This document shows, piece by piece, positions 7,147-34,638 of a stretch of DNA of 38,368 nt. The notes below the pieces were generated by a model that ran no database searches, was not told the DNA's origin, and worked only from the letters and a program-made list of their open reading frames with translations. How positions within the stretch are numbered: the stretch's first letter is position 1; the number at the start of each line of letters is the position of its first letter. The position numbers were made by a program, and so were the translations under genes. The stretch comes from Lachnospiraceae bacterium (GTDB lineage Bacteria; Bacillota; Clostridia; Lachnospirales; Anaerotignaceae): the NCBI GenBank assembly GCA_028695945.1, contig JAQVIB010000001.1, positions 1 through 38,368 of the forward strand, read 5' to 3'.

Positions 7147-7154
7147 ATTCCTAG

Positions 7155-16138: not shown

Positions 16139-16151
16139 ATATATCCCTACT

Positions 16152-17117: not shown

Positions 17118-17121
17118 TTTT

Positions 17122-17487
17122 TTAACTCCTCGATATAAGAATAACCCCAATACATATAACAAAAATGCCTGCAACTCTAATAGGTGTTATATTTTCAGCA
17201 AAAAAATAATATCCTACAACTGCTGATATAACATACCCAATACTTAGAAATGGGTATGCATAGCTTACATCAACCTTTGAAAGAACAATCATCCATATAA
17301 CTATACTAACACCGTAACACAGCATACTAATCCATAGAAACCAATTTGTTATCATGCTTGGTACAGCACTTATAAGTGAAGATAGCCCTCCCGAGATTTC
17401 TCCGACACCCATCATACCTTTTTTCATAGCTAACTGTGCAGAACAGTTAAGCAAAACACTAATAATAATTAAAATTATATTTCCCAT
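17122..17487 (-). CDS. Small 4-TM SMR/EamA-type protein, ArnE/ArnF-like candidate lipid-linked-sugar flippase
   Basis: 121 aa with four hydrophobic helices, the N-terminal LLNCSAQLAMKKG motif and YAYPFLSIGYV. RBS AGGAGA is present. Confidence 0.6.
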   Translation of the reverse strand: MGNIILIIISVLLNCSAQLAMKKGMMGVGEISGGLSSLISAVPSMITNWFLWISMLCYGVSIVIWMIVLSKVDVSYAYPFLSIGYVISAVVGYYFFAENITPIRVAGIFVICIGVILISRS

Positions 17488-17497
17488 TTAATTTCTC

Positions 17498-18061
17498 CTA
17501 TTGTCTTTCCCACACGCTAATATTGTTTTTTCTTATAACAAACGCCTTATCCGCTATTACAGCCAAGGGCATATCCGACTTAGAATCAGAATAAAATTCC
17601 TCTATTTCGTTTTTTTCAAATAGCATCCTGAATCTACTAACCTTTTCATCTCCATGGCAATTTTCACTATAAAAGTGACCATTTTTTTTATCAACGTCTG
17701 TTGCTATAAGAATTTTTATTTTATTCTTTTCACACATTGGTTTAAGCAAAAATATTGGTGATGCGGATATGACCACATCATTATCTTTTTTTTGTTTTAT
17801 ATACCAGTCCTTAAGCTTCCACTTTTTAAATTCCCAAAAAGCTATTACTTCATTATCTATATCTTTTATTCCATTTAAAAAGTAAAAAAAATGTTCTTTC
17901 ATTCTTCTTTTATTAATAATTTTTAATTTATACATAACAATTCCCATTACTTGAATAGGTAAGAATCTAATTAATAAAAAATTTTTCTCTAAAGAGAATA
18001 AGTAAAAATCTACTGTGCTATCCCCATCATATATTGTATTATCAAAATCATAAACATTCAT
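17498..18061 (-). CDS. HAD-IB superfamily phosphatase (the track start is GTG at 18073; ATG at 18061 with RBS GAGGA is preferred)
   Basis: The N-terminal MNVYDFDNTIYDGDST carries the DxDxT nucleophile motif. The C-terminal YSDSKSDMPL carries motif IV-like acidic residues. Confidence 0.7.
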   Translation of the reverse strand: MNVYDFDNTIYDGDSTVDFYLFSLEKNFLLIRFLPIQVMGIVMYKLKIINKRRMKEHFFYFLNGIKDIDNEVIAFWEFKKWKLKDWYIKQKKDNDVVISASPIFLLKPMCEKNKIKILIATDVDKKNGHFYSENCHGDEKVSRFRMLFEKNEIEEFYSDSKSDMPLAVIADKAFVIRKNNISVWERQ

Positions 18062-18073
18062 AGTCATCCTCAC

Positions 18074-18961
18074 TTAAAATACATTGAATAATGTAGGAAA
18101 ATATATAATTCCAATCAACATTATAATATATATACCCGCCATTACTACAAGCATTTTGTCCCCTAATATTACCTCAACAGGGTCACCAAAAGTACCTTTT
18201 TCTATATTTAAGCTATACTTCATAGATAAAAATATTATTAATGGTACTGTTAATACAAGCTTATCCGTATGATATTTAATTATTATATCAGAATCAACAG
18301 CCCATAATGAATAAAATACAATTGCTAATGACATTGACATATACATGTTTTTATCCAGAAAACTATGATTATAATGTTTCAGCACATTCCTTGTGCTAGT
18401 ATTTTCTCCCAACCTTACTATTTCATTGCGCCTCTTTCCAAAACCCATATAAAATGAAACACTCATTACAGTAAGATATACCCATTGTGACACGCCTGAA
18501 TTTATAATTGTTGCACCATATAAAACACGTAACAAAAAGCCAGATACAAGAATTGCGATGTCTATTATTGGATAATTCTTCAACCCACAACTGTAAAATA
18601 CATTTATAACTAAATATATTAATAGTAAACTAAGGCTTTTAAAACTCCTATTTGCAAATATATCTATACCAACCGCAACAATGAAAATAATTATTGAAAT
18701 ATAGATAGCTTTTTTTATACTCACTCGACCAGAAGCTAAAGGCCTATCTTTTTTCTTCTCATGCTGCCTATCTGCATCTATATCTCTGATATCATTAATT
18801 ATGTACACTACTGAAGATATAAGCGAAAATGATACAAATCCCAATAATACTCGTATAAATAAATTTACATTAAACAAATTCATTGTAAAAAACAAAGAAA
18901 CACAAACCAACCCATTTTTTATATAATGTTTTGGTCTTAAAAGTTTAATAATATCTTTCAT
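18074..18961 (-). CDS. UbiA-superfamily polyprenyl-phosphate phosphoribosyltransferase-like protein (DPPR synthase-like)
   Basis: 295 aa with about 9 TM helices. Asp-rich motif YIINDIRDIDADRQHEKKKDRPLASGRVS and second motif GFGKRRNEI, which matches my recollection of the Rv3806c-type family. It lies within a glycan locus. Confidence 0.7.
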   Translation of the reverse strand: MKDIIKLLRPKHYIKNGLVCVSLFFTMNLFNVNLFIRVLLGFVSFSLISSVVYIINDIRDIDADRQHEKKKDRPLASGRVSIKKAIYISIIIFIVAVGIDIFANRSFKSLSLLLIYLVINVFYSCGLKNYPIIDIAILVSGFLLRVLYGATIINSGVSQWVYLTVMSVSFYMGFGKRRNEIVRLGENTSTRNVLKHYNHSFLDKNMYMSMSLAIVFYSLWAVDSDIIIKYHTDKLVLTVPLIIFLSMKYSLNIEKGTFGDPVEVILGDKMLVVMAGIYIIMLIGIIYFPTLFNVF

Positions 18962-18995
18962 CTTTTCTCCTACATTCTATAAAATATACATTATG

Positions 18996-19589
18996 TTATT
19001 CTTCTGGTGGATATAAAAATCTGTTGTCAATAGGAAATACCTTCGCAACAAGTCGGAACGAATCAACAAGAAAACAACCCTTTTCAGTAATCTGATACTT
19101 GTCACCATCCTGCCTTATAGAACCGGTAATAAGTTGCTCATCAAAACGTCTTTGCATTGCTTCATAATCATCCATATATACATCAAGAAAATTCTGTGTT
19201 ATTTCTTCCTCAGTAAAAGCCGTATCCGGATTTTGTGCCATATGCGATAATATATACACAGATATTGAACGGTCAATCGCAACTGTTACTAATGATAAAA
19301 ACGCCATATTTAAGCAAAGAGCAACACACATCGCCAATGCAATATCTCTAACCGTAATTTTGATGAAATTGTTGTATTTAGCAAACAATACAACTAAAAC
19401 AAACATAACTATTCCCACAACTATTAAAAGCTTTGTTGCCCTATAAAAATAAACATTTAAACTCGCAAACAACGGTGTTCTAAAAGAAAGAGCATATAAT
19501 GCTGTACATATTATAAATACAACAAGATAAAATACGCAATACTTTAATCCTTCTTTAACTAAGTTTATGATACTTTTTTTATTTCCCAT
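18996..19589 (-). CDS. Hypothetical membrane protein with 4 TM helices and a soluble C-terminal domain (track start 19628; ATG at 19589 with AAGGAG RBS is preferred)
   Basis: The hydrophobic N-terminal half is followed by AQNPDTAFTEEEITQNFLDVYMDDYEAMQRRFDEQLITGSIRQDGDKYQITEKG. I do not recognise a family. Confidence 0.5.
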   Translation of the reverse strand: MGNKKSIINLVKEGLKYCVFYLVVFIICTALYALSFRTPLFASLNVYFYRATKLLIVVGIVMFVLVVLFAKYNNFIKITVRDIALAMCVALCLNMAFLSLVTVAIDRSISVYILSHMAQNPDTAFTEEEITQNFLDVYMDDYEAMQRRFDEQLITGSIRQDGDKYQITEKGCFLVDSFRLVAKVFPIDNRFLYPPEE

Positions 19590-19666
19590 AAGTTTCTCCT
19601 TATACATTAAAAATTTTTTATTAATCATAACTTACATTACTTTTTTCTTTTACCCTACAATTAATT

Positions 19667-21697
19667 TCAATTCTTTATATTCTTTATATTCTTATCTTTT
19701 AATGCCCTAGTCATAAATATACAACTTAAACCAATAAACGAAATATTTAACGGGAAGGCTGCTGACAGATACAAAGATGTTATCGCATAATATGCACTTA
19801 TATGTGTGTAAGAGACTCCAGCTATAAGTACAAGCATGCTTCCTGCCAAACCAGTGAGAATCAACCATTCATCTACCATCTTTGATTTTTTATATTTTAT
19901 AAGTGTATATATTATATAGATAGTTAATAGAACATATCCCATATAACCAACTATAAAAGCTATAAATCCCAACTTATGATACGGAGTAGTTATTGTATTT
20001 ATTAATTTTATCTTATTCTGATTAGTACTTGCAATTGTATCTTCTGCTTTTGTAATTTTCATATTATCAATATTACAAATCGTATCTCCTGTATTAAATC
20101 CATAAATATTATTACTTTCATCAACTCCAATCTCTTGAATAGTCTTTCCGTCTACTTGAAATACCAGCTTGTACTCCTCAACCTCATCTATATATAAATT
20201 TTCTGAAAATCTACACTTTTGGGCATTTTCGAGCCTTAGCCCTAAGCTCTTACTAAAATAACTAGATATATCTGGGCTATCCACTTTTTTAAATTCTTTA
20301 ATAAAATCATCGTTTTTATACAATAAAACCTTAGTTTCTCTATTCCCATCATTGCATAAAAACCAACCTGAAATATCAATCCGCGTTTTACTTGGATAAA
20401 TTGCAAAGCTTCTGGATATATTCTCAAATATCCTTATTTTATTCTCATCACCCACACTTTGAATTAACTGTGTATCACCTACATCATTTTTAGCAATAAA
20501 CATATATGCCTGCCCCATTGCCGGAAAAATTTCACTTATATATTTGTATTTGAAGGGACTCATTAATGCAGATGGCATTGAAACCCCCTCTCTTTTTTCT
20601 AATTTACCATTTTCCAACGCTGTTTCTATTTCATCAGCTGCATCTCTATAAAACTCATCAGCCTTTATAGGATCTGCATAATAACCATTTGCATAAACAA
20701 CATCTCTCAGACACCAAAAAAACCATCCATCCTTAATCTGACCATCTAACTCTCCATCTGTTGCATCCCAACCGCCACCATAGTTTGAATCTAACGTTTC
20801 TTTTAAAGATGCAAACGTTGGGCTCACTTCATATATCCTGTCAATTGTGCTTTTAGGAACAGACGTTCTATATATATCTTCTGCTGGTTGAATTCTATAT
20901 ATGTCTTTTATTAATCTTGGAAAATTGCCCTGATTAAGCTCGTTATAAATGTAAATACCATATTTGTTATAATTTATGACAGATATCGATGCAGAAAATA
21001 AAATAAATATTAATAATGGAATAATTGAGATACAACTTCTTTGTATAACTAATTTAATATTAAAAACATTATTATCCAATTTATATGTAATTATTGTAAT
21101 ACTAATTACCGCTAATACTAATGGCATAACCCATATTCCATCTTCTCTTGTATGCCACAAAGTTGCAAGTGCAAAGCCTGCCCCTATTGCCCATTTTATA
21201 AAATCTTTTGTCTTACCATTTCTGCTAAAGTACATCCCAAATAAACAACCTGAAAGAAATAATATCTGTGCTGGTGTTATATTACACCTATACACCCTTA
21301 AAAATGTATTTGTGGCTGTTGTTATTGGTGCAAAAAATAGAACTGTAAATATAAATGCTTTTAAATAGTCATTTTTTAGTACTGTTTTAATACCAAATAT
21401 AAATACAATACATGAAAGTGCGTAAAAAATAGTTTGAAGAATTGGTAATGGTATATTTAGTAAATAACCCGTTGACAAAAAGAGTGGAAAGAACACACCC
21501 TTTATAAATGTCATTTGAGAATACATCCCAAGCCAGTTCCCCTCCAAAATATTCTTTGCCATATCCACCATAAGAAAATCGTCATGTGCAGCAAATGCCA
21601 CAGAATATATTGGTAATCCGCCAACAATAATCAATTTAAAAATTATTAGCGCAATAATGTAAAAATATAGACGTTTTCTATTAAAAGAATCATTCAT
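19667..21697 (-). CDS. Large polytopic protein, candidate GT-C-fold (ArnT/PMT/YfhO-like) extracytoplasmic glycosyltransferase (track start 21793; ATG at 21697 with GGAGG RBS is preferred)
   Basis: About 10 N-terminal TM helices with an acidic first loop (VAFAAHDDFLMVD), a ~300-aa hydrophilic domain and 3 C-terminal TM helices. The call rests on this topology and on genomic context only. Confidence 0.5.
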   Translation of the reverse strand: MNDSFNRKRLYFYIIALIIFKLIIVGGLPIYSVAFAAHDDFLMVDMAKNILEGNWLGMYSQMTFIKGVFFPLFLSTGYLLNIPLPILQTIFYALSCIVFIFGIKTVLKNDYLKAFIFTVLFFAPITTATNTFLRVYRCNITPAQILFLSGCLFGMYFSRNGKTKDFIKWAIGAGFALATLWHTREDGIWVMPLVLAVISITIITYKLDNNVFNIKLVIQRSCISIIPLLIFILFSASISVINYNKYGIYIYNELNQGNFPRLIKDIYRIQPAEDIYRTSVPKSTIDRIYEVSPTFASLKETLDSNYGGGWDATDGELDGQIKDGWFFWCLRDVVYANGYYADPIKADEFYRDAADEIETALENGKLEKREGVSMPSALMSPFKYKYISEIFPAMGQAYMFIAKNDVGDTQLIQSVGDENKIRIFENISRSFAIYPSKTRIDISGWFLCNDGNRETKVLLYKNDDFIKEFKKVDSPDISSYFSKSLGLRLENAQKCRFSENLYIDEVEEYKLVFQVDGKTIQEIGVDESNNIYGFNTGDTICNIDNMKITKAEDTIASTNQNKIKLINTITTPYHKLGFIAFIVGYMGYVLLTIYIIYTLIKYKKSKMVDEWLILTGLAGSMLVLIAGVSYTHISAYYAITSLYLSAAFPLNISFIGLSCIFMTRALKDKNIKNIKN

Positions 21698-21768
21698 TGT
21701 TTGCCTCCAAGAAAAGTAAAAACCATTAATAATTATATTGAAGTTTTTGTCCTTCCGTAAGTAAAAAT

Positions 21769-22692
21769 TTACCCTTTGTCCTCCATTATCCATTCAATTA
21801 TATGTCTTATTCCCTTTTTTAAATCCGTTTTAGGTACCCAGAATAACTCTTTAAAAGAACTTTCTACATTAAGCAATGAGCTTTCAACGTCACACTTCCT
21901 CTTTTCTTTATACACTATATCTTTAAAATTTTTCCCAGATGTATCCTGAATTATATCTATTACTTCATTTAGGGAATGAACACACCCTGAACCAATATTG
22001 AAAATATGCTCTTTTCCATTATAGTCAAGTACCTTTTTAAATGCAGTAATTAAGTCATCCATATATATATAATCTCTAACACTTGTGCCATTACCCAAAA
22101 CCATAATAGGCTCATCAGCTATTAATCTGTGTATAAATATAGGAATAACTCCCTGTGGTTTATTTATATCTTGTCCAACACCATAAGGATTTGTTATTCT
22201 CATTATTTTATAATTCAAACCATAAAACTTTCCATAAAACTCTAAATAGCCCTCAATAACCTTTTTCTGTACACCATAGCTGCACTGAGGAGTAAGTTTA
22301 TCATTTACAAAATTTTCTTTTTCACCTGTCTCTCCATAAACCGTGCCTCCTGATGAGGCAAATATTATTTCATTTACACCACATTTAACCATATCTTCTA
22401 AAAGTCTAATTGTAGGAATTACATTTTTACTTATTTCATCAATAATAATACTTGTATCATCCGTAGGAGTTGTGGTACTTATAAGATGAATTACCTTATC
22501 AACTCCCTGAAGTATTGGTTTAAAATCGCAGATTGTAGAAAACTCTCTGTTTATAAAAGTAAAATTTTTAATATCTTCTAACTCTTTTGGTAAATGCCTA
22601 CCAAGAGCAATTATTTTATATTCTTGACAAATACTTTTACATAAAGGCTTACCCATAAATCCTGTTGCACCTAAAATTAAGCATGTTTTCAT
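21769..22692 (-). CDS. NAD-dependent epimerase/dehydratase (UDP-sugar 4-epimerase-like extended SDR)
   Basis: MKTCLILGATGFMGKPL Rossmann motif, SSGGTVYG, and YGVQK catalytic YxxxK. Confidence 0.8.
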   Translation of the reverse strand: MKTCLILGATGFMGKPLCKSICQEYKIIALGRHLPKELEDIKNFTFINREFSTICDFKPILQGVDKVIHLISTTTPTDDTSIIIDEISKNVIPTIRLLEDMVKCGVNEIIFASSGGTVYGETGEKENFVNDKLTPQCSYGVQKKVIEGYLEFYGKFYGLNYKIMRITNPYGVGQDINKPQGVIPIFIHRLIADEPIMVLGNGTSVRDYIYMDDLITAFKKVLDYNGKEHIFNIGSGCVHSLNEVIDIIQDTSGKNFKDIVYKEKRKCDVESSLLNVESSFKELFWVPKTDLKKGIRHIIEWIMEDKG

Positions 22693-22714: not shown

Positions 22715-25700
22715 TTAAACCCCTTTAGCAAACAACTTTACTTTGTCTATCATCTCAGCATCAGAAATCTTAGATGATAAAATACCACAATATGCACAAG
22801 CCTGTTTTAATAAAGAATCCCTTATGCTACTTTTTAAATTTTCGTCTATTGCACTATATTCTTTTATTACATAAGTCAATAAATTTTCCTTTGCATAATT
22901 TTTTAAATGACTAATTACTGCTGTATCAATGCCTAGATTTTCCTGTATTTTTACAATACTGTTATAAAAATCATTAATTATTTTATCATCATACTCTTTC
23001 ATTAATAAATCAGACACATTTTTTTTATTAATATATTCATCCAATAAAGTAACCAGCTCTTCACAATATTCTGTTACATTGCTTTTGCTAATGTTTTCCT
23101 TAATATCTTCAAAAATATAGTTAAGTGCAATAAATACTGTATTAATCTGGCTAAAAATGTTCTTATCCTGCTCGCAATTATTAGTCTTACCTATTATCTT
23201 GTCCATAGCAAAACCCTCAGCAATTGAACGCTTTAAATAATATCCTGCATTTCTATTATGCCCATGTACTATAGTCACAGAAGACATAATTTTCACTTTA
23301 TTATCATCTTTTATTAGTCTAAGCCCTAAATCCAAATCCTCTGCAAAGCTAAATCTATATTTATACTTACGCCATATATCTGCCTTTATAGCTGTCGATA
23401 CATCATTTAATGAAGCATTCTTTCTCTGTACAAGTGGCGTCATATCTCTTGAATAAAATCCAATTCTATCAACTTGTCCATCTAAAACAAAATTTGAATG
23501 AGTTTTTGAAGCAACACGATAATATAAATCAGTTCCGTCTGGGCATGTTTCCATACAGCTTACGGCCGCTATACCTTCATTCATAATTGGTGCTATGATT
23601 TTTGCAACCCAATATTCATCTGTTGGCATGGCGTCTTGAGTCATAAAAATAAGTATGTCTCCGCTTGCATTTTCTCCTCCTAAATTTCTAGCAAAAGAAT
23701 GTGAAAATTGTTTCTGTGTTATATGAATTAATTTGTTCGACTTTTTAAACACTTCCGCACTATCAATATTTTCACTCTCGGAATCAACAAGTATTACCTC
23801 AACAGCCTTTATTCCTTTCTGTCTATGAAGTAAATCTACTGTGAATTCAAAATCCTTCTGAGGATTATATACAGGAAAAATAACAGAAACTACAACATCA
23901 AAATGTAGATTATCTGTTTTGTGAAGCAATTTATCAATTGTATCATTTACATTAACCATAAATGCATTATATGAAAACATTTGTTCATACGCATATCTTG
24001 CGTTATCTCGCATAATTGCCATTTCGTTATTATTATAATTTTCAGCTATTTTTTCCATACAGTTTACAAGTTCTGTAACCGAATTTTCTCTATAAATTAA
24101 TCCTGCATTAAATTTACTAATAATACTTGCTGAACCTGTATTTTCAGAACATATAATTGACTTTGAGAGTGCCATTGCCTCTGTTACTACCACTGGCATA
24201 GGGTCATCTTTCGACGTACAAACTAAACAATCAATCTGAGCATACAATTTAAAAAGATCATCTCTTGAAACTTGTTCAATATGCTTTGAATTGTTTAGGT
24301 ATTTACCTAGAACCTTTTCAACACTTTTATTTATATTTTCATCAAAAGGCTTGCCTATAAATAAAAAGTAACAAGATTTTCTTATCCTATTATCCATTGT
24401 TTCAATTGCCCTAACAAAAATATCTTGAGCTTTACGCTCTTCAAAACTTCCAATAATCGCAAAAACAAATTTGTCCCTCAAATTCACTATATCATTCTTA
24501 TTTTTTGTATAATCATTTAATATATCTGGCAAATAGTATAATAATGTATCCGCTTTGTAGTTAGGAAAAAACCTTTTTAAAACATGTTTAGCATAGTTCC
24601 CCCCGCACACTACGTTTACATTTTGAGGAAGTTCATTAGGCATAACAGCTAAAAATCCACCTTTTTCATACGAATATATAGCTTCATGTATCCACCATAA
24701 TACAGGAATATCCATATTTGCAAGCTTATTAATTACGTAATACGTTACTATCGTGCAGGCAACAATAAAGCTAATTTTTTGTTGAATCTCTTCCAAAAAT
24801 GTTGAACTAGCTAAGGTGTCAGCTATAATCAAAGGTATTCCTTCTTTATTTATCTCTTCTTTAAGCAGTCCATCAACCGGAGACAATATAATAGGCAAAT
24901 AGCCAATATTTTTTAGTATTCTTGCAAAATAGAATAGAACAATTGGTGCTCCTGTAATAGTTAATTCATGGCTTACCAAAATAACTGTCTTACTTTTATT
25001 ATTATGTGCAAAATCAATTTTCGTAGCCCCGAAAACCTCATAATTATACTTTGAGCATAAATCTAAAATAGATATATCTTCATCATCTGTTTCAGTTAAA
25101 CTTTCAGTAATGCTGGTATATAAATTAATTTCGTTTACCTTTTTCTCAAATAAGTATTTTTTAGTTTTTTTGAAAGTTATTTCAGGACCATTATGAATTA
25201 TACTACCAACGCCCTTTTTAATCAATCGTGTATATTTTGTCCGATTAAATAATTCTTTAATTGTATCGGCGCTTACTCTCAACGGGTAAGTTAATCTCCA
25301 ATGAGTAGAATTCTTAATTGCTACATAAGCAATTTCTGCATTTTGAAGCTTTGCAAATAGTTCTTCATTAATCATCATTTTATTTGCATATTCTAGCTTA
25401 AAACGTTCAATTTCATTGTTTAATTTATCAATCACTAAATCGTTCTGTTTAATACTCAAAGTTAACTCATCTATAACAACATTGTTATTCTCTATTTCCT
25501 CTTTTTGACCCTGTAATTCTTTATCTTTATTTTCTATTTTCTCTTTTTGATTCTGTAATTCTTTATCTTTATTCTCTATTTCCTCTTTTTGATTCCGTAA
25601 TTCTTTATCTTTATTCTCTATTTCCTCTTTTTGATTCCGTAATTCTTTATCTTTATTCTCTATTTCCTCTTTTTGATTTATTATTTCTTCTGACTGTTTT

Positions 25701-26896
25701 GCTATTAGAACTTCTTGGTTATTTAACTTATATTTCATGTCTTGCAGTGTGCTTAACAAAGATGTTATTTCATCGTTTGCCATTTTATTCTTTTCACTCC
25801 AAATACAATCACAATTATTGTAAATCTCCAAAAAATTTTTATTTAGTTCTATATAATCATATTTTATTGTTATATCACTAATATCTTTAACCTCTGGTAT
25901 TATAATTTGTGGATACTCATTAATAAAAATAAAATCCTCACCAGTTTTTTCCCCATTAATAGTGTATTTATTAAACATTGTTGAATTACAATATACTTTT
26001 AATTCCTTTACAATGCAATTTTTACCTTCTATTAAATCAACTCTTATATTTGCCACACCATCGGGCACCTTAAATACAATTTTTTCTCCTGTAAAATTAC
26101 CTTTTATTATTTCTATATTTTCTTCTGAAAACCCATTTCCATAGTCTAAATAAATTTTTGTTATATTCTCTGGTATATCGCCTATATTTTTCTGTATTAT
26201 GATGTCATTATCAATAAAATACTGTTTTTTTACAATTGTAAATATAAACTGATAAACTGTTCCCAGCCTTTTTGCCTTTATAATATTAATAGTATTTTCA
26301 GGCAACAAATAATCATACTCTTTAAATTCAGATGTACCTAATAAATTATACGTTGCATCATAAATTTCAATTATATAATCACAACTTTCTATCATTTCAC
26401 ATAGTGAAAAAAATGAAAAAAAATGTATATGCGTATTATCTAGTAGCCCAATCTGCCTATAATGAAATTTATTTGTATATAACTCAGCTAAAATTCCGCT
26501 ATGTGCTACATTTGGAACAGATAAAATTACTCTTCCATCATTTTTAAGCAATCTGTTTGCATTTTGTAATACTTGTTCTGGATTTTTTAAATGCTCAAGG
26601 ACATCCGCAAAAATTATATAATCAAATTCAATATCCTTAAATTCTTTCGCCCACAAAAGTTCTTCAACGTCGCAATGTATCCCATCTTTTGCATACTTTA
26701 ATGCCTTATTAAAGGATTGCTTATCTATCTCAACAATATAAACATCACAATCAAGAACTTCTTTCATATACCTAGTCATATTACCATTTGCAGGCCCAAA
26801 TTCAAGTACTGTAGAACCTGCCTTAATCTGTTTTAAAATAATCGTGTGAGAATCCTTTTCATTTATATCTATTTTAAAATCATATTTTTCTGACAT
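22715..26896 (-). CDS. Giant multidomain glycan synthase: class I SAM methyltransferase, beta-rich domain, ~155-aa coiled coil, GT4 (GT-B), GT2 (GT-A) and a C-terminal helical domain
   Basis: Methyltransferase motifs VLEFGPANG and DYIIFADVLEHLKNP (aa 30-110). Coiled coil at aa ~378-533 (nt 25316-25783). GT4 at nt ~23930-24991, with HELTITGAPIVL and the ExxxxxxxE-type VVTEAMALSKSIICSE. GT2 at nt ~23210-23902, with VSVIFPVYNPQKDF, MTQDAMP and FAEDLDLGLRL. The preferred start is ATG at 26896 (RBS GGGGTGA); the track start is 26914. Confidence 0.8.
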   Translation of the reverse strand: MSEKYDFKIDINEKDSHTIILKQIKAGSTVLEFGPANGNMTRYMKEVLDCDVYIVEIDKQSFNKALKYAKDGIHCDVEELLWAKEFKDIEFDYIIFADVLEHLKNPEQVLQNANRLLKNDGRVILSVPNVAHSGILAELYTNKFHYRQIGLLDNTHIHFFSFFSLCEMIESCDYIIEIYDATYNLLGTSEFKEYDYLLPENTINIIKAKRLGTVYQFIFTIVKKQYFIDNDIIIQKNIGDIPENITKIYLDYGNGFSEENIEIIKGNFTGEKIVFKVPDGVANIRVDLIEGKNCIVKELKVYCNSTMFNKYTINGEKTGEDFIFINEYPQIIIPEVKDISDITIKYDYIELNKNFLEIYNNCDCIWSEKNKMANDEITSLLSTLQDMKYKLNNQEVLIAKQSEEIINQKEEIENKDKELRNQKEEIENKDKELRNQKEEIENKDKELQNQKEKIENKDKELQGQKEEIENNNVVIDELTLSIKQNDLVIDKLNNEIERFKLEYANKMMINEELFAKLQNAEIAYVAIKNSTHWRLTYPLRVSADTIKELFNRTKYTRLIKKGVGSIIHNGPEITFKKTKKYLFEKKVNEINLYTSITESLTETDDEDISILDLCSKYNYEVFGATKIDFAHNNKSKTVILVSHELTITGAPIVLFYFARILKNIGYLPIILSPVDGLLKEEINKEGIPLIIADTLASSTFLEEIQQKISFIVACTIVTYYVINKLANMDIPVLWWIHEAIYSYEKGGFLAVMPNELPQNVNVVCGGNYAKHVLKRFFPNYKADTLLYYLPDILNDYTKNKNDIVNLRDKFVFAIIGSFEERKAQDIFVRAIETMDNRIRKSCYFLFIGKPFDENINKSVEKVLGKYLNNSKHIEQVSRDDLFKLYAQIDCLVCTSKDDPMPVVVTEAMALSKSIICSENTGSASIISKFNAGLIYRENSVTELVNCMEKIAENYNNNEMAIMRDNARYAYEQMFSYNAFMVNVNDTIDKLLHKTDNLHFDVVVSVIFPVYNPQKDFEFTVDLLHRQKGIKAVEVILVDSESENIDSAEVFKKSNKLIHITQKQFSHSFARNLGGENASGDILIFMTQDAMPTDEYWVAKIIAPIMNEGIAAVSCMETCPDGTDLYYRVASKTHSNFVLDGQVDRIGFYSRDMTPLVQRKNASLNDVSTAIKADIWRKYKYRFSFAEDLDLGLRLIKDDNKVKIMSSVTIVHGHNRNAGYYLKRSIAEGFAMDKIIGKTNNCEQDKNIFSQINTVFIALNYIFEDIKENISKSNVTEYCEELVTLLDEYINKKNVSDLLMKEYDDKIINDFYNSIVKIQENLGIDTAVISHLKNYAKENLLTYVIKEYSAIDENLKSSIRDSLLKQACAYCGILSSKISDAEMIDKVKLFAKGV
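25485..25678 (-). repeat. In-frame 42-nt tandem repeat, 4.6 copies, encoding NQKEEIENKDKELR heptad-rich units inside the coiled coil
   Basis: The units are 25485-25526, 25527-25568, 25569-25610, 25611-25652 and a partial 25653-25678. Units 3 and 4 are identical and the others differ at a few positions. Confidence 0.9.
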
Positions 26897-28124
26897 TAAT
26901 ATCACCCCATTCATGTGGAATTATATATCTTCCTTCTCCCACATACTTTGTATTAATAGTAATCTCTTTTATCATGGTCTTATAGTCAATATTTACACTT
27001 GCTGTTTCATCCATAAGGGCAACATCAAAATAGTATTTTCCTCCTACGGAAAGTATTCCTTTTACATATTGAATAAAAAATCTATTTCTGCCATATTTCC
27101 ATGGTATATTAACATTATCTAATAGAGTATTTAATCCACAAACATAATCATCATCCATACCTCTAATTGCAACCCCCAATACAGGATTATCAACATTTTC
27201 ATCGTATACATCGTACACTACTTCAGCCGTTATTCGTTCATTAAATTCAAATTCATTTACCTCCTTTCCTTTACTATTCCATAAATGAAAAGCAATAATC
27301 TGTGCCATATTATCACCTGGTGCAAATTCTATTTCATCATCTGACTGTTTTGGGATTTCTTCTTGTTCTTCATCATCAAATGCGACTTCTCCAATCTTTA
27401 AGAAGTCAAGATATTTATCCGTAATTCTATCAACATCTCCATCCGCCATTACAACCCCTTTATTAAGCCATAATGCTCTCGAGCAAAACCTTTTAATTGC
27501 ATTCACATCATGAGAAACAAACAAAACTGTAGTACCACTAAACATCATTTCTTTCATTTTCTTCATACACTTAAGTTTAAAACGTGTATCACCAACAGAT
27601 AATGCTTCATCAACAATAAGTATTTCAGGCTCAACATTTATTGCAACTGCAAATGCAAGACGGGCAAACATTCCACTTGAATAAGTCTTTACCGGCTGAT
27701 TAATAAATTCACCTATATCAGCAAAATTTAGAATTTCATCCAGTTTACTGTCAATTTCATTTCTGTTAAGCCCCATCATAGTTCCGCTTAAATAAATATT
27801 TTCAATTCCTGTGTAATCAGGATTAAATCCCGTTCCAAGTTCAAGTAATGCTGAAACCTTTCCCCTTACTTCTACTTCTCCTTCTGTAGGATTTAAAACC
27901 CCTGTAATTATTTTTAATAGCGTTGATTTTCCAGAACCATTAGTACCAATTATACCAACATTTTCTCCTTGTCTAATACTAAACGAAATATTTTTCAAAG
28001 CATAAAACTCTTTGGAATACTTTTTTTTAGAAACTGAAATAGATTCTTTTAAGCGATCTACAGGTTTATCATATATTCTATAAATTTTAATTAGATTTTT
28101 AATACTTATTATTGATTCTTCCAT
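26880..28124 (-). CDS. Polysaccharide ABC exporter ATP-binding protein (Wzt/TagH-like) with C-terminal Wzt_C-like carbohydrate-binding domain
   Basis: Walker A GTNGSGKST, signature YSSGMFARLAFA, Walker B ILIVDEALSVGD. This is followed by an acidic linker and a ~170-aa beta-rich C-terminal domain (nt ~26883-27395). The preferred start is ATG at 28124 (MEESIISIKNL); the track start is 28157. Confidence 0.85.
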   Translation of the reverse strand: MEESIISIKNLIKIYRIYDKPVDRLKESISVSKKKYSKEFYALKNISFSIRQGENVGIIGTNGSGKSTLLKIITGVLNPTEGEVEVRGKVSALLELGTGFNPDYTGIENIYLSGTMMGLNRNEIDSKLDEILNFADIGEFINQPVKTYSSGMFARLAFAVAINVEPEILIVDEALSVGDTRFKLKCMKKMKEMMFSGTTVLFVSHDVNAIKRFCSRALWLNKGVVMADGDVDRITDKYLDFLKIGEVAFDDEEQEEIPKQSDDEIEFAPGDNMAQIIAFHLWNSKGKEVNEFEFNERITAEVVYDVYDENVDNPVLGVAIRGMDDDYVCGLNTLLDNVNIPWKYGRNRFFIQYVKGILSVGGKYYFDVALMDETASVNIDYKTMIKEITINTKYVGEGRYIIPHEWGDINVRKI

Positions 28125-28140
28125 TCTTTCCCTCTCTAAT

Positions 28141-29538
28141 CTATAAAACATCCGCAAAATGCACTTTTAATCTTCTAAACAAGCTAATTCCTGCAAAAAA
28201 CAAAAATGCTATTATAAACCAAAAATAAATTGTCTGACTAAAGCTTGGAAAAACAGGTTCACTCCCAATCATACAATTTCTATAACCCTGCACAATATAA
28301 AACATAGGATTAAGCTTGAAAAATTTAATAAGCTTTATTGGTAATATATTTATATCCCACATAATAGGCGTAAGCCACATCATAATTTGTAATATAATAT
28401 TAATAATTTGGGTTAAATCTCTAAAAAATATAACCACAGATGCCGTTATAAATGAAATGCCGATAATAAGCACAATCATGCATATCATATAGTAAAAAAT
28501 TCCAACCATTCTTAATGCAGGGAAAACACCATTTATTGTGTACAATCCTACCAAAAAAGCCACAAAAAATAAATGAACAAAAAATGCTGAAAGTATTTTA
28601 ACTAGTGGCAAAATATCTATTTTAAATACAACCTTTTTTACTAGATAGCTGTATTCCATAAAGCAGTTTGTTGCACTGCTCCATGCATCCGAAAAGAAAA
28701 ACCACGGAACAATTCCAGCAGTAAGCCATAACGCAAATGGTACATCACTTACAGGTGAACTTTTTAAACCAAATGTAAAAACAAACCAGAATATTAATAT
28801 AGTACAAATAGGCTGGACAAACGCCCACAATATGCCAAAATATGACCCTGCAAATTTGACTTTAAAATCATTTAGTGCTAATGACAAAAGCAGTTTTCTA
28901 TCATTAAATACGCTCTTTGCTAAAAGATATACATCTTCTAAATATACAAATTTATATATAACAATTAAAAATACAAATGCTATAAAAAATGCGGTGATAA
29001 AATAATAAATATTATTTATAGGCTCTAAGTAATCAAGCGTCAATAAAATATATGAATCATTTCCTTCTGTTCTAAAATTAATAAAACCATTGTTTTCAGA
29101 AACTACTATCTGGTTTAATTTGATTTCCTGAGAATTGATTAATGAAGACAACTCCTCAGAAGAGAAAAAACATTTTTTATTTCCTTTTAAAATTTCTAAT
29201 GACGTAATACTGAAATTAATTCCTGACTCACTTCCAAAATCTATTCTAAGCTCTTGAGCTTCTTGAGGAAAAACAATCGAAATATCCTTAAATGTTTTAT
29301 TTTTAGATGTAGAAACTTCGGCATTTAAAGAATGTGGCTCATCAAAATTAAAATTGCCTTTTCCTTGGGTATAAAAAAGCTGTAGAGTTTCATTTTTATC
29401 AGAATAAATATTTATTTTAACCTTTCCTACGCTGTAATTTGGAATTGCTACAACACTTAAGGATAAAAACATAACAACAAATAAAAAAAAGTAAATAAAA
29501 ATTCTTTTTAAGTTTAATTTTTTCATATATTCTCCCAT
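28141..29538 (-). CDS. ABC-2 type polysaccharide exporter permease (Wzm/TagG-like) with an unusual ~190-aa N-terminal extension (alternative start 29526)
   Basis: The canonical Wzm core starts near LALNDFKVKFAGSYFGILWAFVQP and has 6 TM helices. It is preceded by one TM helix, a ~140-aa hydrophilic domain and a second TM helix. The ATG at 29538 overlaps the rfbD stop (TGATG). Confidence 0.8.
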   Translation of the reverse strand: MGEYMKKLNLKRIFIYFFLFVVMFLSLSVVAIPNYSVGKVKINIYSDKNETLQLFYTQGKGNFNFDEPHSLNAEVSTSKNKTFKDISIVFPQEAQELRIDFGSESGINFSITSLEILKGNKKCFFSSEELSSLINSQEIKLNQIVVSENNGFINFRTEGNDSYILLTLDYLEPINNIYYFITAFFIAFVFLIVIYKFVYLEDVYLLAKSVFNDRKLLLSLALNDFKVKFAGSYFGILWAFVQPICTILIFWFVFTFGLKSSPVSDVPFALWLTAGIVPWFFFSDAWSSATNCFMEYSYLVKKVVFKIDILPLVKILSAFFVHLFFVAFLVGLYTINGVFPALRMVGIFYYMICMIVLIIGISFITASVVIFFRDLTQIINIILQIMMWLTPIMWDINILPIKLIKFFKLNPMFYIVQGYRNCMIGSEPVFPSFSQTIYFWFIIAFLFFAGISLFRRLKVHFADVL

Positions 29539-30383
29539 CAGCCATCAATCTCTTTTAGAAACCTTTTCAAAGCATCCTTCCAATGAGCTAGCCTTTGAAA
29601 TTTTGCCTCATCCAAAATTTCTTTATTTAGTCTTGAATTTAATGGCCTTACAGTCTTCGTAGGATATTCCGTGGTTTTTATAAAATTAACCTTTGTTTTA
29701 TAATTTGATAATCTAAATATCTCCTCAGCAAACTCTGCCCACGAACAAAACCCTTCATTTGTTGCGTGATATATTCCGTATTTATCTGTCATCACCATAT
29801 CACACAGCAATTTAGCCAAATCTGCTGTATAGGTTGGTGAACCAACCTGGTCACATACAACACTTATTTCACTGCGTTCTTTTCCTAGTCTAAGCATAGT
29901 CTTAATAAAATTATTTCCATTTTTCCCAAATACCCATGAAATTCTAACAATAAAATACTTGTCTAAAATCTTCTTAACAGTATTTTCTCCTTCAAGCTTC
30001 GTTTTTCCGTATACACCTAAAGGTCCTGTTTCATCATTCACATCGTAAGCCTTATTGCCGGTACCTGAGAAAACATAATCAGTACTAATATAAATCATTT
30101 TAGCATCGACAGCCTCGCAAGCTTTTGCAATATTTTCTGTTCCATATACATTTACCATATGGCACAACCCGGGTTCATCCTCTGCTTTATCTACCGCAGT
30201 GTATGCTGCACAATGAATAACCGCCTTCGGCTTATAACTTGATATATATTCCATAACGTCATTTTCTTTTGTTATATCAAATTCCCTTCTTCCAACCCCA
30301 GTACACTCAATATTTCTGCTTTTAAGAACCTTAACAACATCATATCCAAGTTGTCCATTTACACCTGTAACAAGTATTCTCAT
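29538..30383 (-). CDS. rfbD: dTDP-4-dehydrorhamnose reductase (the track ORF extends to a TTG at 30419)
   Basis: MRILVTGVNGQLGYDV..., CAAYTAVDKAE, YGKTKLEGE, SPTYTADLA. Confidence 0.9.
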   Translation of the reverse strand: MRILVTGVNGQLGYDVVKVLKSRNIECTGVGRREFDITKENDVMEYISSYKPKAVIHCAAYTAVDKAEDEPGLCHMVNVYGTENIAKACEAVDAKMIYISTDYVFSGTGNKAYDVNDETGPLGVYGKTKLEGENTVKKILDKYFIVRISWVFGKNGNNFIKTMLRLGKERSEISVVCDQVGSPTYTADLAKLLCDMVMTDKYGIYHATNEGFCSWAEFAEEIFRLSNYKTKVNFIKTTEYPTKTVRPLNSRLNKEILDEAKFQRLAHWKDALKRFLKEIDG

Positions 30384-30396
30384 AAAAACATCCTTT

Positions 30397-31323
30397 TTAA
30401 ATATATAAAATATAGCCAATATTTCTTACAATTCCATTTTTAAAAGTTTTGATTTTAAAAATGTTGTATATTTTTACAGCCTTGCTTTTTTTAGGTAACA
30501 TATAATACGTTTTTAGCAATTTTTTTTGTCGCACATTAAGCAATTCTTTATAGGATTTATAAAAAGCTTCAGCCTGTCTATATGTATCTGTTAAAGCCCT
30601 TTTAATTGTTTTAAATTTTACCATGTATAAAATAATAAATTTTAATGACCTCATATTTCTTACGCCAACGGAATTATTATTATGCTGCCTATACAAAATA
30701 GTGGGTTCATTCACATGGTGAATACTTCCGAATGCCGCTGCTATAATTGCAAGCCACCAGTCGTGCATAACCATATAGCCTTCAGGCTTTATTATTAATT
30801 CCCCCAGTGCCCTGTTATACATAACAGTACATCCTGTAACAATATTTTGTATAAGTAAGTTATTCAAACATGTTTTGTTATAATCAGCATACATAAATTT
30901 TTTAAATGATGGAGCAATTATATTTAAATTGTCATCAACAATCTTCAAATCCGAATGAACTAATATTGGCTTCCTGCCACCGTTATTTTTCTCTAGCTGC
31001 TGCATTTTTTTCAGCGTAATTTCAATTTTTTTAGGAAGCCAAACATCATCTTGGTCACATAGCATAATATAGTCATCTTTATGATTCAACATCATTTTCA
31101 TAAAGTTATACTTTGCACTTCCTGAGTTTTTCTCATTTCTTGTAACCTTAATTTTTTTGGGGTATTTTGCCTCAAAAAGTTTTTCAATCTCATAAGTTTT
31201 ATCCGTAGAACAGTCATCATTAATATAAAGGATAAAGTCCCCATACGTCTGATTTATGATAGACTCTATTTGCTGGGCAATATATTTTTCACCATTATAA
31301 GAAGCCAATAAAATTGAAATCAT
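30397..31323 (-). CDS. GT2-family glycosyltransferase (rhamnosyltransferase-like)
   Basis: MISILLASYNGEKYIAQQIESIINQTY...YINDDCSTDKT and the DQDDVW DxD motif. Confidence 0.85.
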   Translation of the reverse strand: MISILLASYNGEKYIAQQIESIINQTYGDFILYINDDCSTDKTYEIEKLFEAKYPKKIKVTRNEKNSGSAKYNFMKMMLNHKDDYIMLCDQDDVWLPKKIEITLKKMQQLEKNNGGRKPILVHSDLKIVDDNLNIIAPSFKKFMYADYNKTCLNNLLIQNIVTGCTVMYNRALGELIIKPEGYMVMHDWWLAIIAAAFGSIHHVNEPTILYRQHNNNSVGVRNMRSLKFIILYMVKFKTIKRALTDTYRQAEAFYKSYKELLNVRQKKLLKTYYMLPKKSKAVKIYNIFKIKTFKNGIVRNIGYILYI

Positions 31324-31329
31324 AACTCA

Positions 31330-32154
31330 TTATCCTTGCTTTCTCAAAATTTTCTGATAAAACCATTTTGTTGCACACGTTGGCATAAAACACAGAATGA
31401 CCTGTAATAAGGAAAGTAATAAAAAATCCCAAAAGGAGGAGAATCCTCTTCTCCAATTCAAAAACCGAACATATATAAATCCTTTTGTATTGTTCCAGTT
31501 TTTTCTCCTCTGAAAGGTATCATCTGTTAATCGGTAGTATAAAAGGCTTTCAGGAATATTTTCGCATACTGCTCCCCTCATAATAAGCCTAACTGCCAAA
31601 TCATAGTCCTCGCATCTTTTCATTTTTCTGTAACCGCCACATGCAATAACCTTTGACTTTTTATACATAACCGTGGGATTATTAAAGGGGTTTCTTCTTT
31701 TTGCATACCTTTTTATCTCGTGGTTTGTTAAGGGAACTTTTCTAACAGAAGCCACATTTTCCGTGCTACAGACAAATTCCTTGGCATAACTTCCTATATA
31801 ATCAAGTGCAGGATTTTGCTGGAATTTCAGCATCTGAATTTCACACCTTTTACGCACTGAAATATCATCTGAATCCATTCTTGCAATCAACTCATTTTTA
31901 CAAAACTTTAACCCCTTGTTTAGTGCATTCCAAACTCCAAAATTTTCCTTTATTCTAACAATGGTAAATAATCCTTCATTGTCTTTTTCAAAATGGCTTA
32001 TTATACTATTATGAGTATCCTTTAATTCCCCGTCACAAACAATTACTATTTGGCTTGGCCTTAACGTTTGGTTCAGCATGCTTTCTACTGCTGCTCTAAA
32101 ATATTCAGGCTCATCATTTATATATACAGCCATCAATACTGAATATTGGTTCAA
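31330..32154 (-). CDS. GT2-family glycosyltransferase with a C-terminal membrane-associated tail
   Basis: YSVLMAVYINDEPEYFRAAVESMLNQT, the VCDGEL region and an RMDSDD DxD motif. The C-terminus is hydrophobic (FWDFLLLSLLQVILCFMP). Confidence 0.85.
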   Translation of the reverse strand: MNQYSVLMAVYINDEPEYFRAAVESMLNQTLRPSQIVIVCDGELKDTHNSIISHFEKDNEGLFTIVRIKENFGVWNALNKGLKFCKNELIARMDSDDISVRKRCEIQMLKFQQNPALDYIGSYAKEFVCSTENVASVRKVPLTNHEIKRYAKRRNPFNNPTVMYKKSKVIACGGYRKMKRCEDYDLAVRLIMRGAVCENIPESLLYYRLTDDTFQRRKNWNNTKGFIYVRFLNWRRGFSSFWDFLLLSLLQVILCFMPTCATKWFYQKILRKQG

Positions 32155-32165
32155 GACTTTACTCC

Positions 32166-33185
32166 TTATCTTCCAACATACATCTTGTCATAATATTTCT
32201 GATACTCTCCGCTAATAATATTTTCCCACCAGCTTTTATTATCCAGATACCATTGTATTGTTTTTTTAATACCTTCGTCAAACAACGTTGTAGGTTCCCA
32301 ACCAAGCTCGTTTTTAATTTTTGTAGGGTCAATGGCATATCTCATGTCATGTCCTAGTCTGTCTGTTACATAGGTAATTAAATCCTCACTTTTACCAAGG
32401 GCATGAATAATGGTTTTTACAACTTGCAAATTTGTACGCTCGTTATGCCCGCCAATGTTGTAAACCTCCCCAACTCTTCCATCATGAATTATTAGATCAA
32501 TTGCACGGCAATGGTCTTCCACATAAAGCCAATCCCGTACATTTTCACCTTTTCCGTAAACAGGAAGAGGTTTTTCGTTCAAGCAATTTGCGATAATAAG
32601 GGGTATCAACTTTTCAGGGAAATGGTACGGTCCATAATTATTGGAGCACCTTGAAATAGTAACAGGAATCCCGAAAGTTCTGTGGTAAGCCTGTACAAGT
32701 AAATCAGCAGCAGCTTTGGATGCAGAATAAGGACTTGAGGTATGAAGTGGTGTTTCTTCTGTAAAAAACAAATCCGTTCTGTCCAAAGGCAAATCTCCAT
32801 AAACTTCGTCTGTGGATACCTGATGATACCTTTTTATCCCATATTTGCGGCATGCATCTAAAAGCACACCCGTTCCAATATAATTTGTTTTAAGAAAAAC
32901 CTCAGGGTCATCTATAGAACGGTCTACGTGACTTTCTGCTGCAAAGTTTACAATAATATCTGGCTTTTCATCCTCAAACAATCCATATACAAATTCTCTG
33001 TCTGCAATATCACCCTTTATAAACTTGAAATTAGGCTTCTCCATAACTGACTTCAGGGTTTCCATATTTCCTGCATATGTTAACGCATCTAAACAAATAA
33101 TTTGGTATTGAGGATATTTATTTACCATATGATGAATAAAGTTCCCGCCAATAAAACCAGCCCCGCCTGTAACTATTATTTTCAT
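32166..33185 (-). CDS. rfbB: dTDP-glucose 4,6-dehydratase
   Basis: MKIIVTGGAGFIGGNF, STDEVYGD, YSASKAAADLL. Its start overlaps the rfbC stop (TAATG). Confidence 0.95.
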   Translation of the reverse strand: MKIIVTGGAGFIGGNFIHHMVNKYPQYQIICLDALTYAGNMETLKSVMEKPNFKFIKGDIADREFVYGLFEDEKPDIIVNFAAESHVDRSIDDPEVFLKTNYIGTGVLLDACRKYGIKRYHQVSTDEVYGDLPLDRTDLFFTEETPLHTSSPYSASKAAADLLVQAYHRTFGIPVTISRCSNNYGPYHFPEKLIPLIIANCLNEKPLPVYGKGENVRDWLYVEDHCRAIDLIIHDGRVGEVYNIGGHNERTNLQVVKTIIHALGKSEDLITYVTDRLGHDMRYAIDPTKIKNELGWEPTTLFDEGIKKTIQWYLDNKSWWENIISGEYQKYYDKMYVGR

Positions 33186-33745
33186 TATTTCACCTCATAA
33201 TTAAAATACACATTCTTTTCATCAAAAAATGGTGCCAAGGCATCCTTATCCGATACAATAGGGTTTTCAATCCCCCAGTTAACTCCTATTTCAGGATCAT
33301 TCCAGCGAATGCTGCCTTCACTTTCAAAGTTATATAAATTATCTGCTTTATATAAGAACTCTACCTCGTCTGTAAGAGTTAAAAATCCATGGGCAAAACC
33401 CCTTGGTATCATAAGTTGACGCTTGTTCTCCTCCGAAAGTTCTGCTGCCACCCATTTTTTATAGGTTGGTGAACCCTTACGAATATCAACAGCAACATCT
33501 ATTACAGCACCCTTGGTACACCGTACAAGCTTGGCTTGGGAAAACTCTCCCTTTTGGAAATGAAGACCTCTTATTGTACCTTTTGTGCTTGAAAAAGACT
33601 GATTATCCTGCACAAAATCATAAAATATGCCTGCCTCCTCCATTTTCTTTTTGGACCAGCTTTCCATAAAGTAGCCTCTTTTATCTCCAAACACTTGTGG
33701 TTCTAAAATGTATACATCCAAAACATCTGTTTTTATCACATTCAT
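33185..33745 (-). CDS. rfbC: dTDP-4-dehydrorhamnose 3,5-epimerase
   Basis: FGDKRGYFMESW, RGLHFQ, KLVRCTKGAVIDVAVDIRKGSPTY, PRGFAHGF. Confidence 0.95.
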   Translation of the reverse strand: MNVIKTDVLDVYILEPQVFGDKRGYFMESWSKKKMEEAGIFYDFVQDNQSFSSTKGTIRGLHFQKGEFSQAKLVRCTKGAVIDVAVDIRKGSPTYKKWVAAELSEENKRQLMIPRGFAHGFLTLTDEVEFLYKADNLYNFESEGSIRWNDPEIGVNWGIENPIVSDKDALAPFFDEKNVYFNYEVK

Positions 33746-33759
33746 GATTTCAAATCCTC

Positions 33760-34638
33760 CTAATATAATATTTTACCTTGAGCGACCCTTTTTAAGTGAT
33801 TGCCATATTCGGATTTTCCGTACATTTCAGCTGATTCCAAAAGATTTTCCTTGGTAATCCAACCGTTTATATATGCAATTTCCTCTATTGCAGAAATTTT
33901 AATTCCTTGTCTACTTTCTATGACCTTAACAAATTCTGTGGCATCCGCCAAGGCATCTACCGTACCTGTGTCCAGCCATGCATAACCTCTTCCAAGTGTT
34001 ACAACATTAAGCGTATCGTTCTCAAGGTACATTTTGTTTAAATCGGTAATTTCCAATTCTCCCCTATCAGAAGGTTTAACCTGCTTTGCCAGCTGACAAA
34101 CTCGGCTATCATAAAAATAAAGGCCTGTAACACAATAATTAGATTTGGGGTTTTTAGGCTTTTCCTCTAAGGAAATTACTTTTCCATTTTTATCAAATTC
34201 CACAATTCCAAACCTTTCAGGATCTTCTACATAATATCCAAAAACCGTTGCTCCAGCTTTTCTTCCTGCCGCCTCCTTCAAATGCTTAGTAAGCCCACTT
34301 CCATAAAAAATATTATCTCCTAAAATCATTGCACAACTTTCGCCTGCAATGAATTTTTCACCTATAATAAAAGCCTGTGCTAGTCCGTCTGGAGAAGGCT
34401 GCTCTGCATAGCATAAACTTATTCCAAACTTTGAACCGTCACCTAAAAGGCTCTTAAAATTTGGCAAATCATTAGGGGTGGAAATAATTAAAATATCTTT
34501 TATGCCTGCTAGCATAAGAGTAGATAACGGGTAATAAATCATAGGCTTATCATATACAGGCAACAACTGCTTAGATGTCACCATAGTTAGTGGATAAAGC
34601 CTCGTTCCAGAACCGCCCGCCAAAATTATTCCTTTCAT
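33760..34638 (-). CDS. rfbA: Glucose-1-phosphate thymidylyltransferase
   Basis: [44 protein letters not shown]. Confidence 0.95.

Follow-up and report, generated by a model that had tools for sequence, protein, structure and literature searches.

A recent tandem amplification of a two-heptad unit in the helical stalk of a putative glycan terminator-polymerase from a Lachnospiraceae bacterium

The stalked enzyme and its tandem array

The stretch of DNA considered here (hereafter the window) is a complete contig of 38,368 nucleotides (nt) from a Lachnospiraceae bacterium (JAQVIB010000001.1, assembly GCA_028695945.1), assembled from short reads of a landfill metagenome at a depth of about 6x. 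On its minus strand, at 22715..26914, lies a gene for a 1399-amino-acid (aa) enzyme with a methyltransferase domain, a long helical stalk and two glycosyltransferase (GT) modules of the GT4 and GT2 types, recognized from the list of open reading frames (ORFs), from Pfam matches and from 113 homologs sharing its N-terminal module; the part encoding the stalk contains a tandem array of a 42-nt (14-aa) unit. The enzyme gene overlaps the end of wzt, which encodes an ATP-binding cassette (ABC) transporter ATPase with a C-terminal, carbohydrate-binding Wzt_C domain, the one that in prototype systems recognises capped chain ends (26880..28157, minus strand; ABC_tran E=3.7e-26; Wzt_C E=1e-11, 45.5 bits for a cut-off of 30.4), and wzt is preceded by the gene for the ABC-2 permease Wzm (28141..29538, minus strand; ABC2_membrane E=1.4e-12), giving the order wzm-wzt-enzyme. 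Further upstream, at 29538..34638 on the minus strand, rmlD, two GT2 genes, rmlB, rmlC and rmlA are predicted to provide dTDP-L-rhamnose and adaptor transferases (RmlD_sub_bind 3.9e-101, dTDP_sugar_isom 1.6e-72, NTP_transferase 2.4e-75, GDP_Man_Dehyd 4e-89). Downstream of the enzyme are found an epimerase, an unannotated 708-aa protein and a set of UbiA/HAD/SDR/membrane proteins, with an SLH-domain surface protein nearby. Judged from these matches, the cluster is probably an ABC-transporter-dependent locus for a rhamnose-based cell-wall or S-layer glycan in a low-GC Gram-positive bacterium.

The array, at 25485..25678 on the minus strand, is by far the strongest of the 38-kb window according to Tandem Repeats Finder (period 42, 4.6 copies, score 346, 95% matches, 0 indels), which returned the unit length, copy number and position given in a preliminary description of this DNA. 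It is in frame with the minus-strand ORF and encodes (EIENKDKELRNQKE)n at aa 413-476. Starting from unit U1 (25625-25666), which encodes EIENKDKELRNQKE, unit U2 (25583-25624) has the same sequence, U3 (25541-25582) differs from U1 by 1 nt (R to Q) and U4 (25499-25540) by 5 nt, all on the minus strand, and both edges of the array carry partial units. Direct comparison likewise bore out the identity of the adjacent segments 25569-25610 and 25611-25652, and the small distances from U1 (0, 1 and 5 nt) agree with the recent duplication proposed in that description. The longest exact self-match at period 42 reaches 82 nt, and at the protein level the period-14 repeat score is 38, none of 100 shuffles exceeding 6. 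Identical middle units and diverged edge units form the pattern produced by unequal exchange in a tandem array. The array is real, and in evolutionary terms the two-heptad unit was amplified recently in this alpha-helical stalk. A gene on the plus strand at the array was considered and rejected, the only ORF open there being one of 60 aa beside the array.

The order of domains around the stalk was established from Pfam and from an AlphaFold2 (AF2) model of the first 640 residues, computed as a monomer with 44 homologs (mean predicted local distance difference test, pLDDT, 79.9). The database copy of the protein begins at 26896 with MSEKYDF, and its numbering equals ORF numbering minus 6. The N-terminal part is a class I S-adenosylmethionine (SAM) methyltransferase domain, a putative chain-capping terminator (26210..26851, minus strand; aa 22-235), with Pfam matches spanning aa 22-180 (Methyltransf_23 E=2.4e-19, MetW E=2.4e-14, also Methyltransf_11), a match to PDB entry 3cc8 both in sequence (E=1.7e-20) and in fold (template modelling score 0.82 with Foldseek), and a pLDDT above 90 at residues 1-229 in database numbering; Foldseek searches with the 640-residue model returned matches to methyltransferases only. 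A beta-sandwich domain follows (25847..26167, minus strand; aa 250-356), seen as AF2 strands at 244-350 in database numbering with a pLDDT of about 90; it holds RFDP...DPQ motifs kept across the family alignment and, as modelled (about 105 aa), appears too small for a kinase. Beyond the stalk, the GT4 (GT-B fold) module (23990..24997, minus strand; aa 640-975; Glyco_trans_4_5 E=2.3e-18, Glycos_transf_1 E=2.9e-23) and the GT2 (GT-A fold) module (23165..23887, minus strand; aa 1010-1250; Glycos_transf_2 E=6.5e-13, Pfam span aa 1010-1134) would be the first and second parts of a polymerase. The GT2 module is followed by a helical tail ending in GV, and both the GT2 module and the C-terminal GV are also found in homologs. 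Nearly all members of the subfamily with GT4 and GT2 modules end in GV (LFAKGV at 22718-22730 of the window; P0010, P0012-P0019 and P0036 among the homologs).

The stalk itself is modelled as a single continuous alpha-helix, a putative ruler (25313..25840, minus strand; aa 359-534), of about 176 uninterrupted residues (353-528 in database numbering, pLDDT 75-87), followed by two further helices. The array accounts for 64 of the 176 residues (36%). From helix geometry (1.5 A per residue), the stalk would be about 26 nm long, and each 14-aa unit would add about 2.1 nm. The phase of the heptad a position is equal in every 28-residue segment over aa 376-522, a region with no Pro and one Gly, and the stalk gives weak matches to SMC coiled-coil models. 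As the preliminary description had it, the unit is exactly two heptads, reading frame and register are both kept, and the repeat sits, by Pfam and AF2 alike, in a helical stalk between the putative terminator and the putative polymerase. Hydrophobic occupancy of the a and d positions is 0.62-0.88 in the flanks, which from their sequence are probably canonical coiled coil, and 0.5 in the repeat, where only the a position contributes. The base of the stalk carries the unannotated motif WRLTYPLR (25277..25300, minus strand; aa 539-546), whose family pattern S..W[KR].T.P.R closes the coil in about 60 of the 113 homologs with W, T, P and R near-invariant (alignment A8). It is followed by a pair of basic helices (25136..25303, minus strand; aa 538-593; AF2 helices 532-550 and 554-587), and the charge after the stalk is positive (12 K+R vs 6 D+E at aa 547-606). 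The motif and these helices may form a membrane- or polymerase-docking element.

Could the number of units in the contig nevertheless be an assembly artefact, the true gene carrying more or fewer units and the 82-nt exact self-overlap having been mis-resolved by short-read assemblers? The contig is of short-read origin and low depth, the contigs that Logan gives for the source run (X1) are interrupted inside the array, as expected, and other public contigs from metagenome-assembled genomes (MAGs) end inside such stalk arrays (L027 at 7139-7345 and L035 at 7642-7722). Run searches found full coverage of the window in the source landfill run only, and two further runs with fragments that stop at the array. 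An estimate independent of the assembly was obtained from the Logan k=31 unitigs of run X1, bearing in mind that copy-number variants generate no new 31-mers. There, depth is 11.0 for k-mers that the assembly contains twice and 16.6 for those it contains three times, and the two flanks of the array stand at 5.56 and 7.11, corresponding to ratios of 1.74 and 2.62 where 2 and 3 are expected. These ratios fit the assembled structure with no sign of collapsed extra units, as support rather than proof at about 6x, and the idea of a collapsed assembly is thus disfavoured, at this low depth. The substitutions that distinguish U3 and U4 also anchor the array edges. An artefactual copy number is on these grounds decidedly unlikely. 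That short-read assemblies often break at stalk arrays suggests, more generally, that members of this family are under-represented or truncated in databases.

Stalk length and unit number among relatives

Methyltransferase, beta domain and stalk recur throughout the 113 homologs, and the modules behind the stalk vary (GT2, GT4, RgpF, WsaF-like, or none). Some relatives (L003, L004, L025, L036 and L069) are stand-alone methyltransferase-beta-stalk proteins of 421-533 aa whose sequence stops behind the coil; with no fused polymerase, they are reminiscent of WbdD-like terminators, and they carry arrays of the same kind. When stalk length is taken as the distance between the PQ motif of the beta domain and the W motif, it ranges from 51 to 533 aa in the family, with a median of 144. 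The protein of the window has a stalk of 204 aa, or of 148 aa once four units are subtracted, a value close to the family median, so that the array looks like an expansion of a stalk of typical length.

Internal repeats, defined by a score above all 100 shuffles, were detected in 22 of 60 stalks, and in 16 of these 22 the period corresponds to whole heptads of 7 aa (binomial P = 9e-10), 14 aa being the most frequent. At the DNA level, 10 of 80 loci from GTDB species representatives, among which the window's own contig is absent, have in-frame arrays that occupy the same stalk position, with periods of 42 nt (four loci), 21 nt (four) or 54 nt (two). For example, a 2.59-Mb Methylophagaceae chromosome has a stalk array of 4.4 copies of a 42-nt unit that are 97% identical. 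Unit sequences differ between species, which indicates that these arrays arose independently. A similar heptad, [IL]-x-x-K-D-x-x, is reused by independently arisen arrays of distant lineages, in the form of IENKDKE, IQDKDTH, IQEKDLQ and LQSKDME (25499-25666 in the window, 7072-7257 in L007, 7073-7161 in L025 and aa 397-449 in P0010), a recurrence that hints at a structural preference of stalks for K-D at the d and e positions.

Do such arrays change in length? A scan for polymorphism within clusters defined at 90% identity yielded five clusters of proteins, at least 95-100% identical, in which the internal indels consist of whole stalk units only. In cluster P0092, proteins of 1238, 1259, 1259, 1280, 1301 and 1322 aa have 2, 3, 3, 4, 5 and 6 copies, respectively, of a 21-aa unit, with no other indel in 1,300 residues. 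Members of cluster P0045 have 1, 2, 3 and 4 copies of a 28-aa unit, and three of the four are 100% identical elsewhere. One member of cluster P0010 lacks 28 aa (2 x 14 aa), one member of cluster P0099 has an additional 14 aa (a 14-aa unit), and one member of a Clostridium neonatale cluster an additional 7 aa (a 7-aa unit). In seven clusters taken from a second, unselected set and compared by member lengths only, no length variation was seen among 3 to 9 full-length members. The DNA of the 6-copy allele (a k141 assembly) has distinguishing single-nucleotide polymorphisms (SNPs) in every unit and a longest exact period-63 run of 62 nt, and the 2-copy allele corresponds to the last two units of the 6-copy allele, with flanks that are 99.3-99.4% identical. 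Taken together, the SNPs, the short exact run, the match between alleles and the flank identity make simple miscounting by assemblers unlikely.

Among relatives, the common alleles are met again, without change, in 13 to 47 contigs: an 1851-aa allele is present in 21 contigs as against one contig for the 1823-aa allele, and the 1399-aa allele of C. neonatale in 47. This recurrence points to variation between strains rather than to rapid switching within a population. It also bears on the possibility that the array acts as a fast contingency locus, generating stalk-length heterogeneity inside one population in the manner of phase variation. Two identical units and a third one differing by 1 nt would indeed be good substrates for slippage or recombination, and depth ratios slightly under expectation (1.74 and 2.62) would allow for minority shorter alleles. 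However, alleles of relatives are the same across many independent contigs, the units, 42 nt in length and few in number, do not resemble classical hypermutable short repeats, and the deviation in depth is within noise at 6x, all of which render fast switching very unlikely. The suggestion made earlier that arrays of this type expand and contract is accordingly upheld between strains of relatives, where proteins 95-100% identical differ by whole-unit steps, and is not supported for switching within populations.

Known rulers and the meaning of stalk length

Coiled coils are established as rulers for polysaccharides only in a few Gram-negative models, through engineered insertions and deletions. 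In WbdD of Escherichia coli O9a and WbbB of Klebsiella pneumoniae O12, the length of the coil sets chain length experimentally, according to PMC11231755. The same source assigns a ruler role to ORF6 of the K. pneumoniae O7 rhamnan cluster, organized as methyltransferase(-kinase)-CBM-coil-2xGT2 (CBM, carbohydrate-binding module), and cites an effect of the terminator:polymerase stoichiometry on chain length in E. coli O9a. WbdD (E. coli O9a/O8; K. pneumoniae O3/O5) shares with the protein of the window the placement of a distal chain-terminating methyltransferase on a coil, length-setting in WbdD, and the binding domain of Wzt recognises its cap; in contrast, WbdD stands alone as a terminator, its polymerase (WbdA) being a separate protein that it recruits, and in O9a it includes a kinase, whereas the window protein is fused and has no kinase. 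WbbB (K. pneumoniae O12 / Raoultella terrigena) is, as here, a single chain that runs from a terminator through a long coiled coil to two polymerase GT modules, with export by an ABC transporter and a Wzt binding domain (PMC11231755), but its terminator is a GT99 beta-Kdo transferase instead of a class I SAM methyltransferase, and no natural tandem-repeat alleles have been reported for it. O7 ORF6 is similar in its N-terminal methyltransferase, Ig/CBM-like beta domain, coiled coil, two C-terminal GTs and rhamnose cluster with wzm/wzt (PMC11231755), and differs by an additional 223-aa kinase, the addition of a methyl-phosphate and a pair of GT2 modules, where the window protein has a beta sandwich of about 105 aa and GT4 plus GT2.

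The closest architecture is that of WsaE from Geobacillus stearothermophilus NRS 2004/3a, an enzyme of S-layer poly-rhamnan synthesis by the Wzm/Wzt pathway, with a chain-capping N-terminal 2-O-methyltransferase and two rhamnosyltransferase domains (PMC2943079). By the architecture described, it unites an N-terminal methyltransferase and two C-terminal GT domains in one polypeptide as the window protein does, and its locus is alike in the wzm-wzt-enzyme order with overlap, the rml genes, the Gram-positive host and the SLH/S-layer proteins nearby (PMC2943079). A length-determining factor was postulated for the WsaE system, with no stalk or ruler described (PMC2943079), and, unlike in the window, no tandem array has been reported in a spacer; a geometric stalk would be a factor of the kind postulated. 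By analogy, the window protein probably works like WbdD and WbbB while belonging to neither family, and its architecture appears to be that of WsaE. A natural copy-number dial of length is known from another pathway, that of the Helicobacter pylori fucosyltransferases FutA/FutB, whose heptad repeats form an 'enzymatic ruler' (PMC4205683). These are GT10 enzymes that decorate chains and have a 7-aa unit in C-terminal repeats, whereas the window protein has no GT10 domain, its Pfam matches being limited to the methyltransferase, GT4 and GT2. For terminator-polymerase rulers of the WbdD/WbbB type, no published report of natural tandem-repeat variation was found in the open-access literature. What would be new with respect to known ruler systems is the encoding of ruler length by a heptad-quantised tandem array.

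These elements suggest, with a probability of roughly 55%, that a recent two-heptad amplification has occurred in a terminator-stalk-polymerase enzyme whose stalk length sets the modal length of the chain, units being gained or lost whole as strain alleles. In such a mechanism, the C-terminal GT4 and GT2 modules would work at the membrane, lengthening a rhamnose-rich chain linked to a lipid, and the stalk would hold the N-terminal methyltransferase at its other end, some 26 nm from them. Capping of the non-reducing end would have to wait until the growing chain extends as far as the methyltransferase; the cap, presumably a methyl group, would halt growth and be read by the C-terminal binding domain of Wzt for export, and modal chain length would therefore be fixed by the length of the stalk. 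Unequal recombination or replication slippage between near-identical 42-nt units would add or remove whole units, each one lengthening or shortening the stalk by about 2.1 nm with frame and heptad register kept, and giving rise to heritable stalk-length alleles between strains, presumably also in the lineage of the window. That copy number would act on glycan length is argued by analogy with the published work on WbdD and WbbB.

Several observations weigh against this interpretation. The stalk of the family is known only from sequence and from a model. No sequence similarity to WbdD or WbbB was detected among PDB matches at E<=0.01. The protein has no close relative among 5.8 billion proteins, the nearest one, from a Clostridia MAG, being 40% identical, and the run searches gave one sample covering the array and no second sample with the organism of the window. 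For most of the polymorphic alleles, the source is a metagenome assembled from short reads, a kind of assembly prone to repeat miscounts. Finally, within the repeat, the a position alternates between I and L and the d position is K or Q, and the density of i to i+4 salt pairs, 0.25 per residue, is four times that of the flanks (0.06-0.07). With the a position alone hydrophobic and salt pairs this dense, the repeat could amount to a weak coiled coil, or else to a rod resembling a single alpha-helix; from the model, it would in either case be a rigid helical spacer. The coiled coil announced in the preliminary description holds as a long helix with unbroken register, and is less secure within the repeat, whose poor hydrophobic core may make it weak there.

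Another explanation is that the length polymorphism is neutral: the stalk would only dimerise or tether the enzyme, chain length would be set otherwise (by the kinetics of capping relative to extension, or by stoichiometry), and the number of units would have no phenotype. The ten-fold range of stalk length in the family could reflect weak constraint, the repeat is highly charged and poor in hydrophobic core, and terminator:polymerase stoichiometry does influence chain length as well in E. coli O9a, as cited in PMC11231755. Against this stand the two prototypes of the same geometry in which, according to that source, coil length sets chain length experimentally, and the restriction of periods to heptad multiples together with a register kept along the stalk, which points to a requirement for the rod to remain helical, rigid and in register. 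Neutrality of unit number appears rather unlikely in this light.

If stalk length does set chain length, steps of about 1 to 4 nm in the stalk would amount to a heritable retuning of cell-wall or S-layer glycan length with unchanged chemistry. Natural alleles, such as those with 2 to 6 units in genes otherwise 99% identical, would form a ready series for the ruler model, and the stalk would be a concrete candidate for the missing length determinant of the WsaE system. It is tempting, at somewhat less than even odds, to extend this further and regard heptad-quantised stalk arrays as a general natural dial for surface-polysaccharide length (in Bacillota, Campylobacterales, Methylophagaceae and others, with 2-6 units among strains that are 99% identical), and the growth of the window's stalk by four units, from 148 to 204 aa, as a recent retuning, possibly driven by phages or by other selection on the surface. 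In practice, metagenome assemblies will often break at such genes or miscount their repeats.

Other features of the locus

The remaining observations concern the neighbouring genes. Wzm has 465 aa, and its ABC-2 permease core begins only at about aa 219, behind an N-terminal extension of roughly 200 aa. Downstream of the enzyme, the 708-aa ORF (19667-21793, minus strand) has no Pfam or NCBIfam match; in a related locus (L082), the homologous enzyme has a 707-aa protein with DUF7657/DUF7654 similarly placed downstream. The genes for UbiA prenyltransferase-family, HAD phosphatase, SDR epimerase and LPG_synthase_TM-family proteins (15188-19628, minus strand), also downstream of the polymerase, form a set that resembles lipid-linked pentofuranose decoration systems (PMC11127046).

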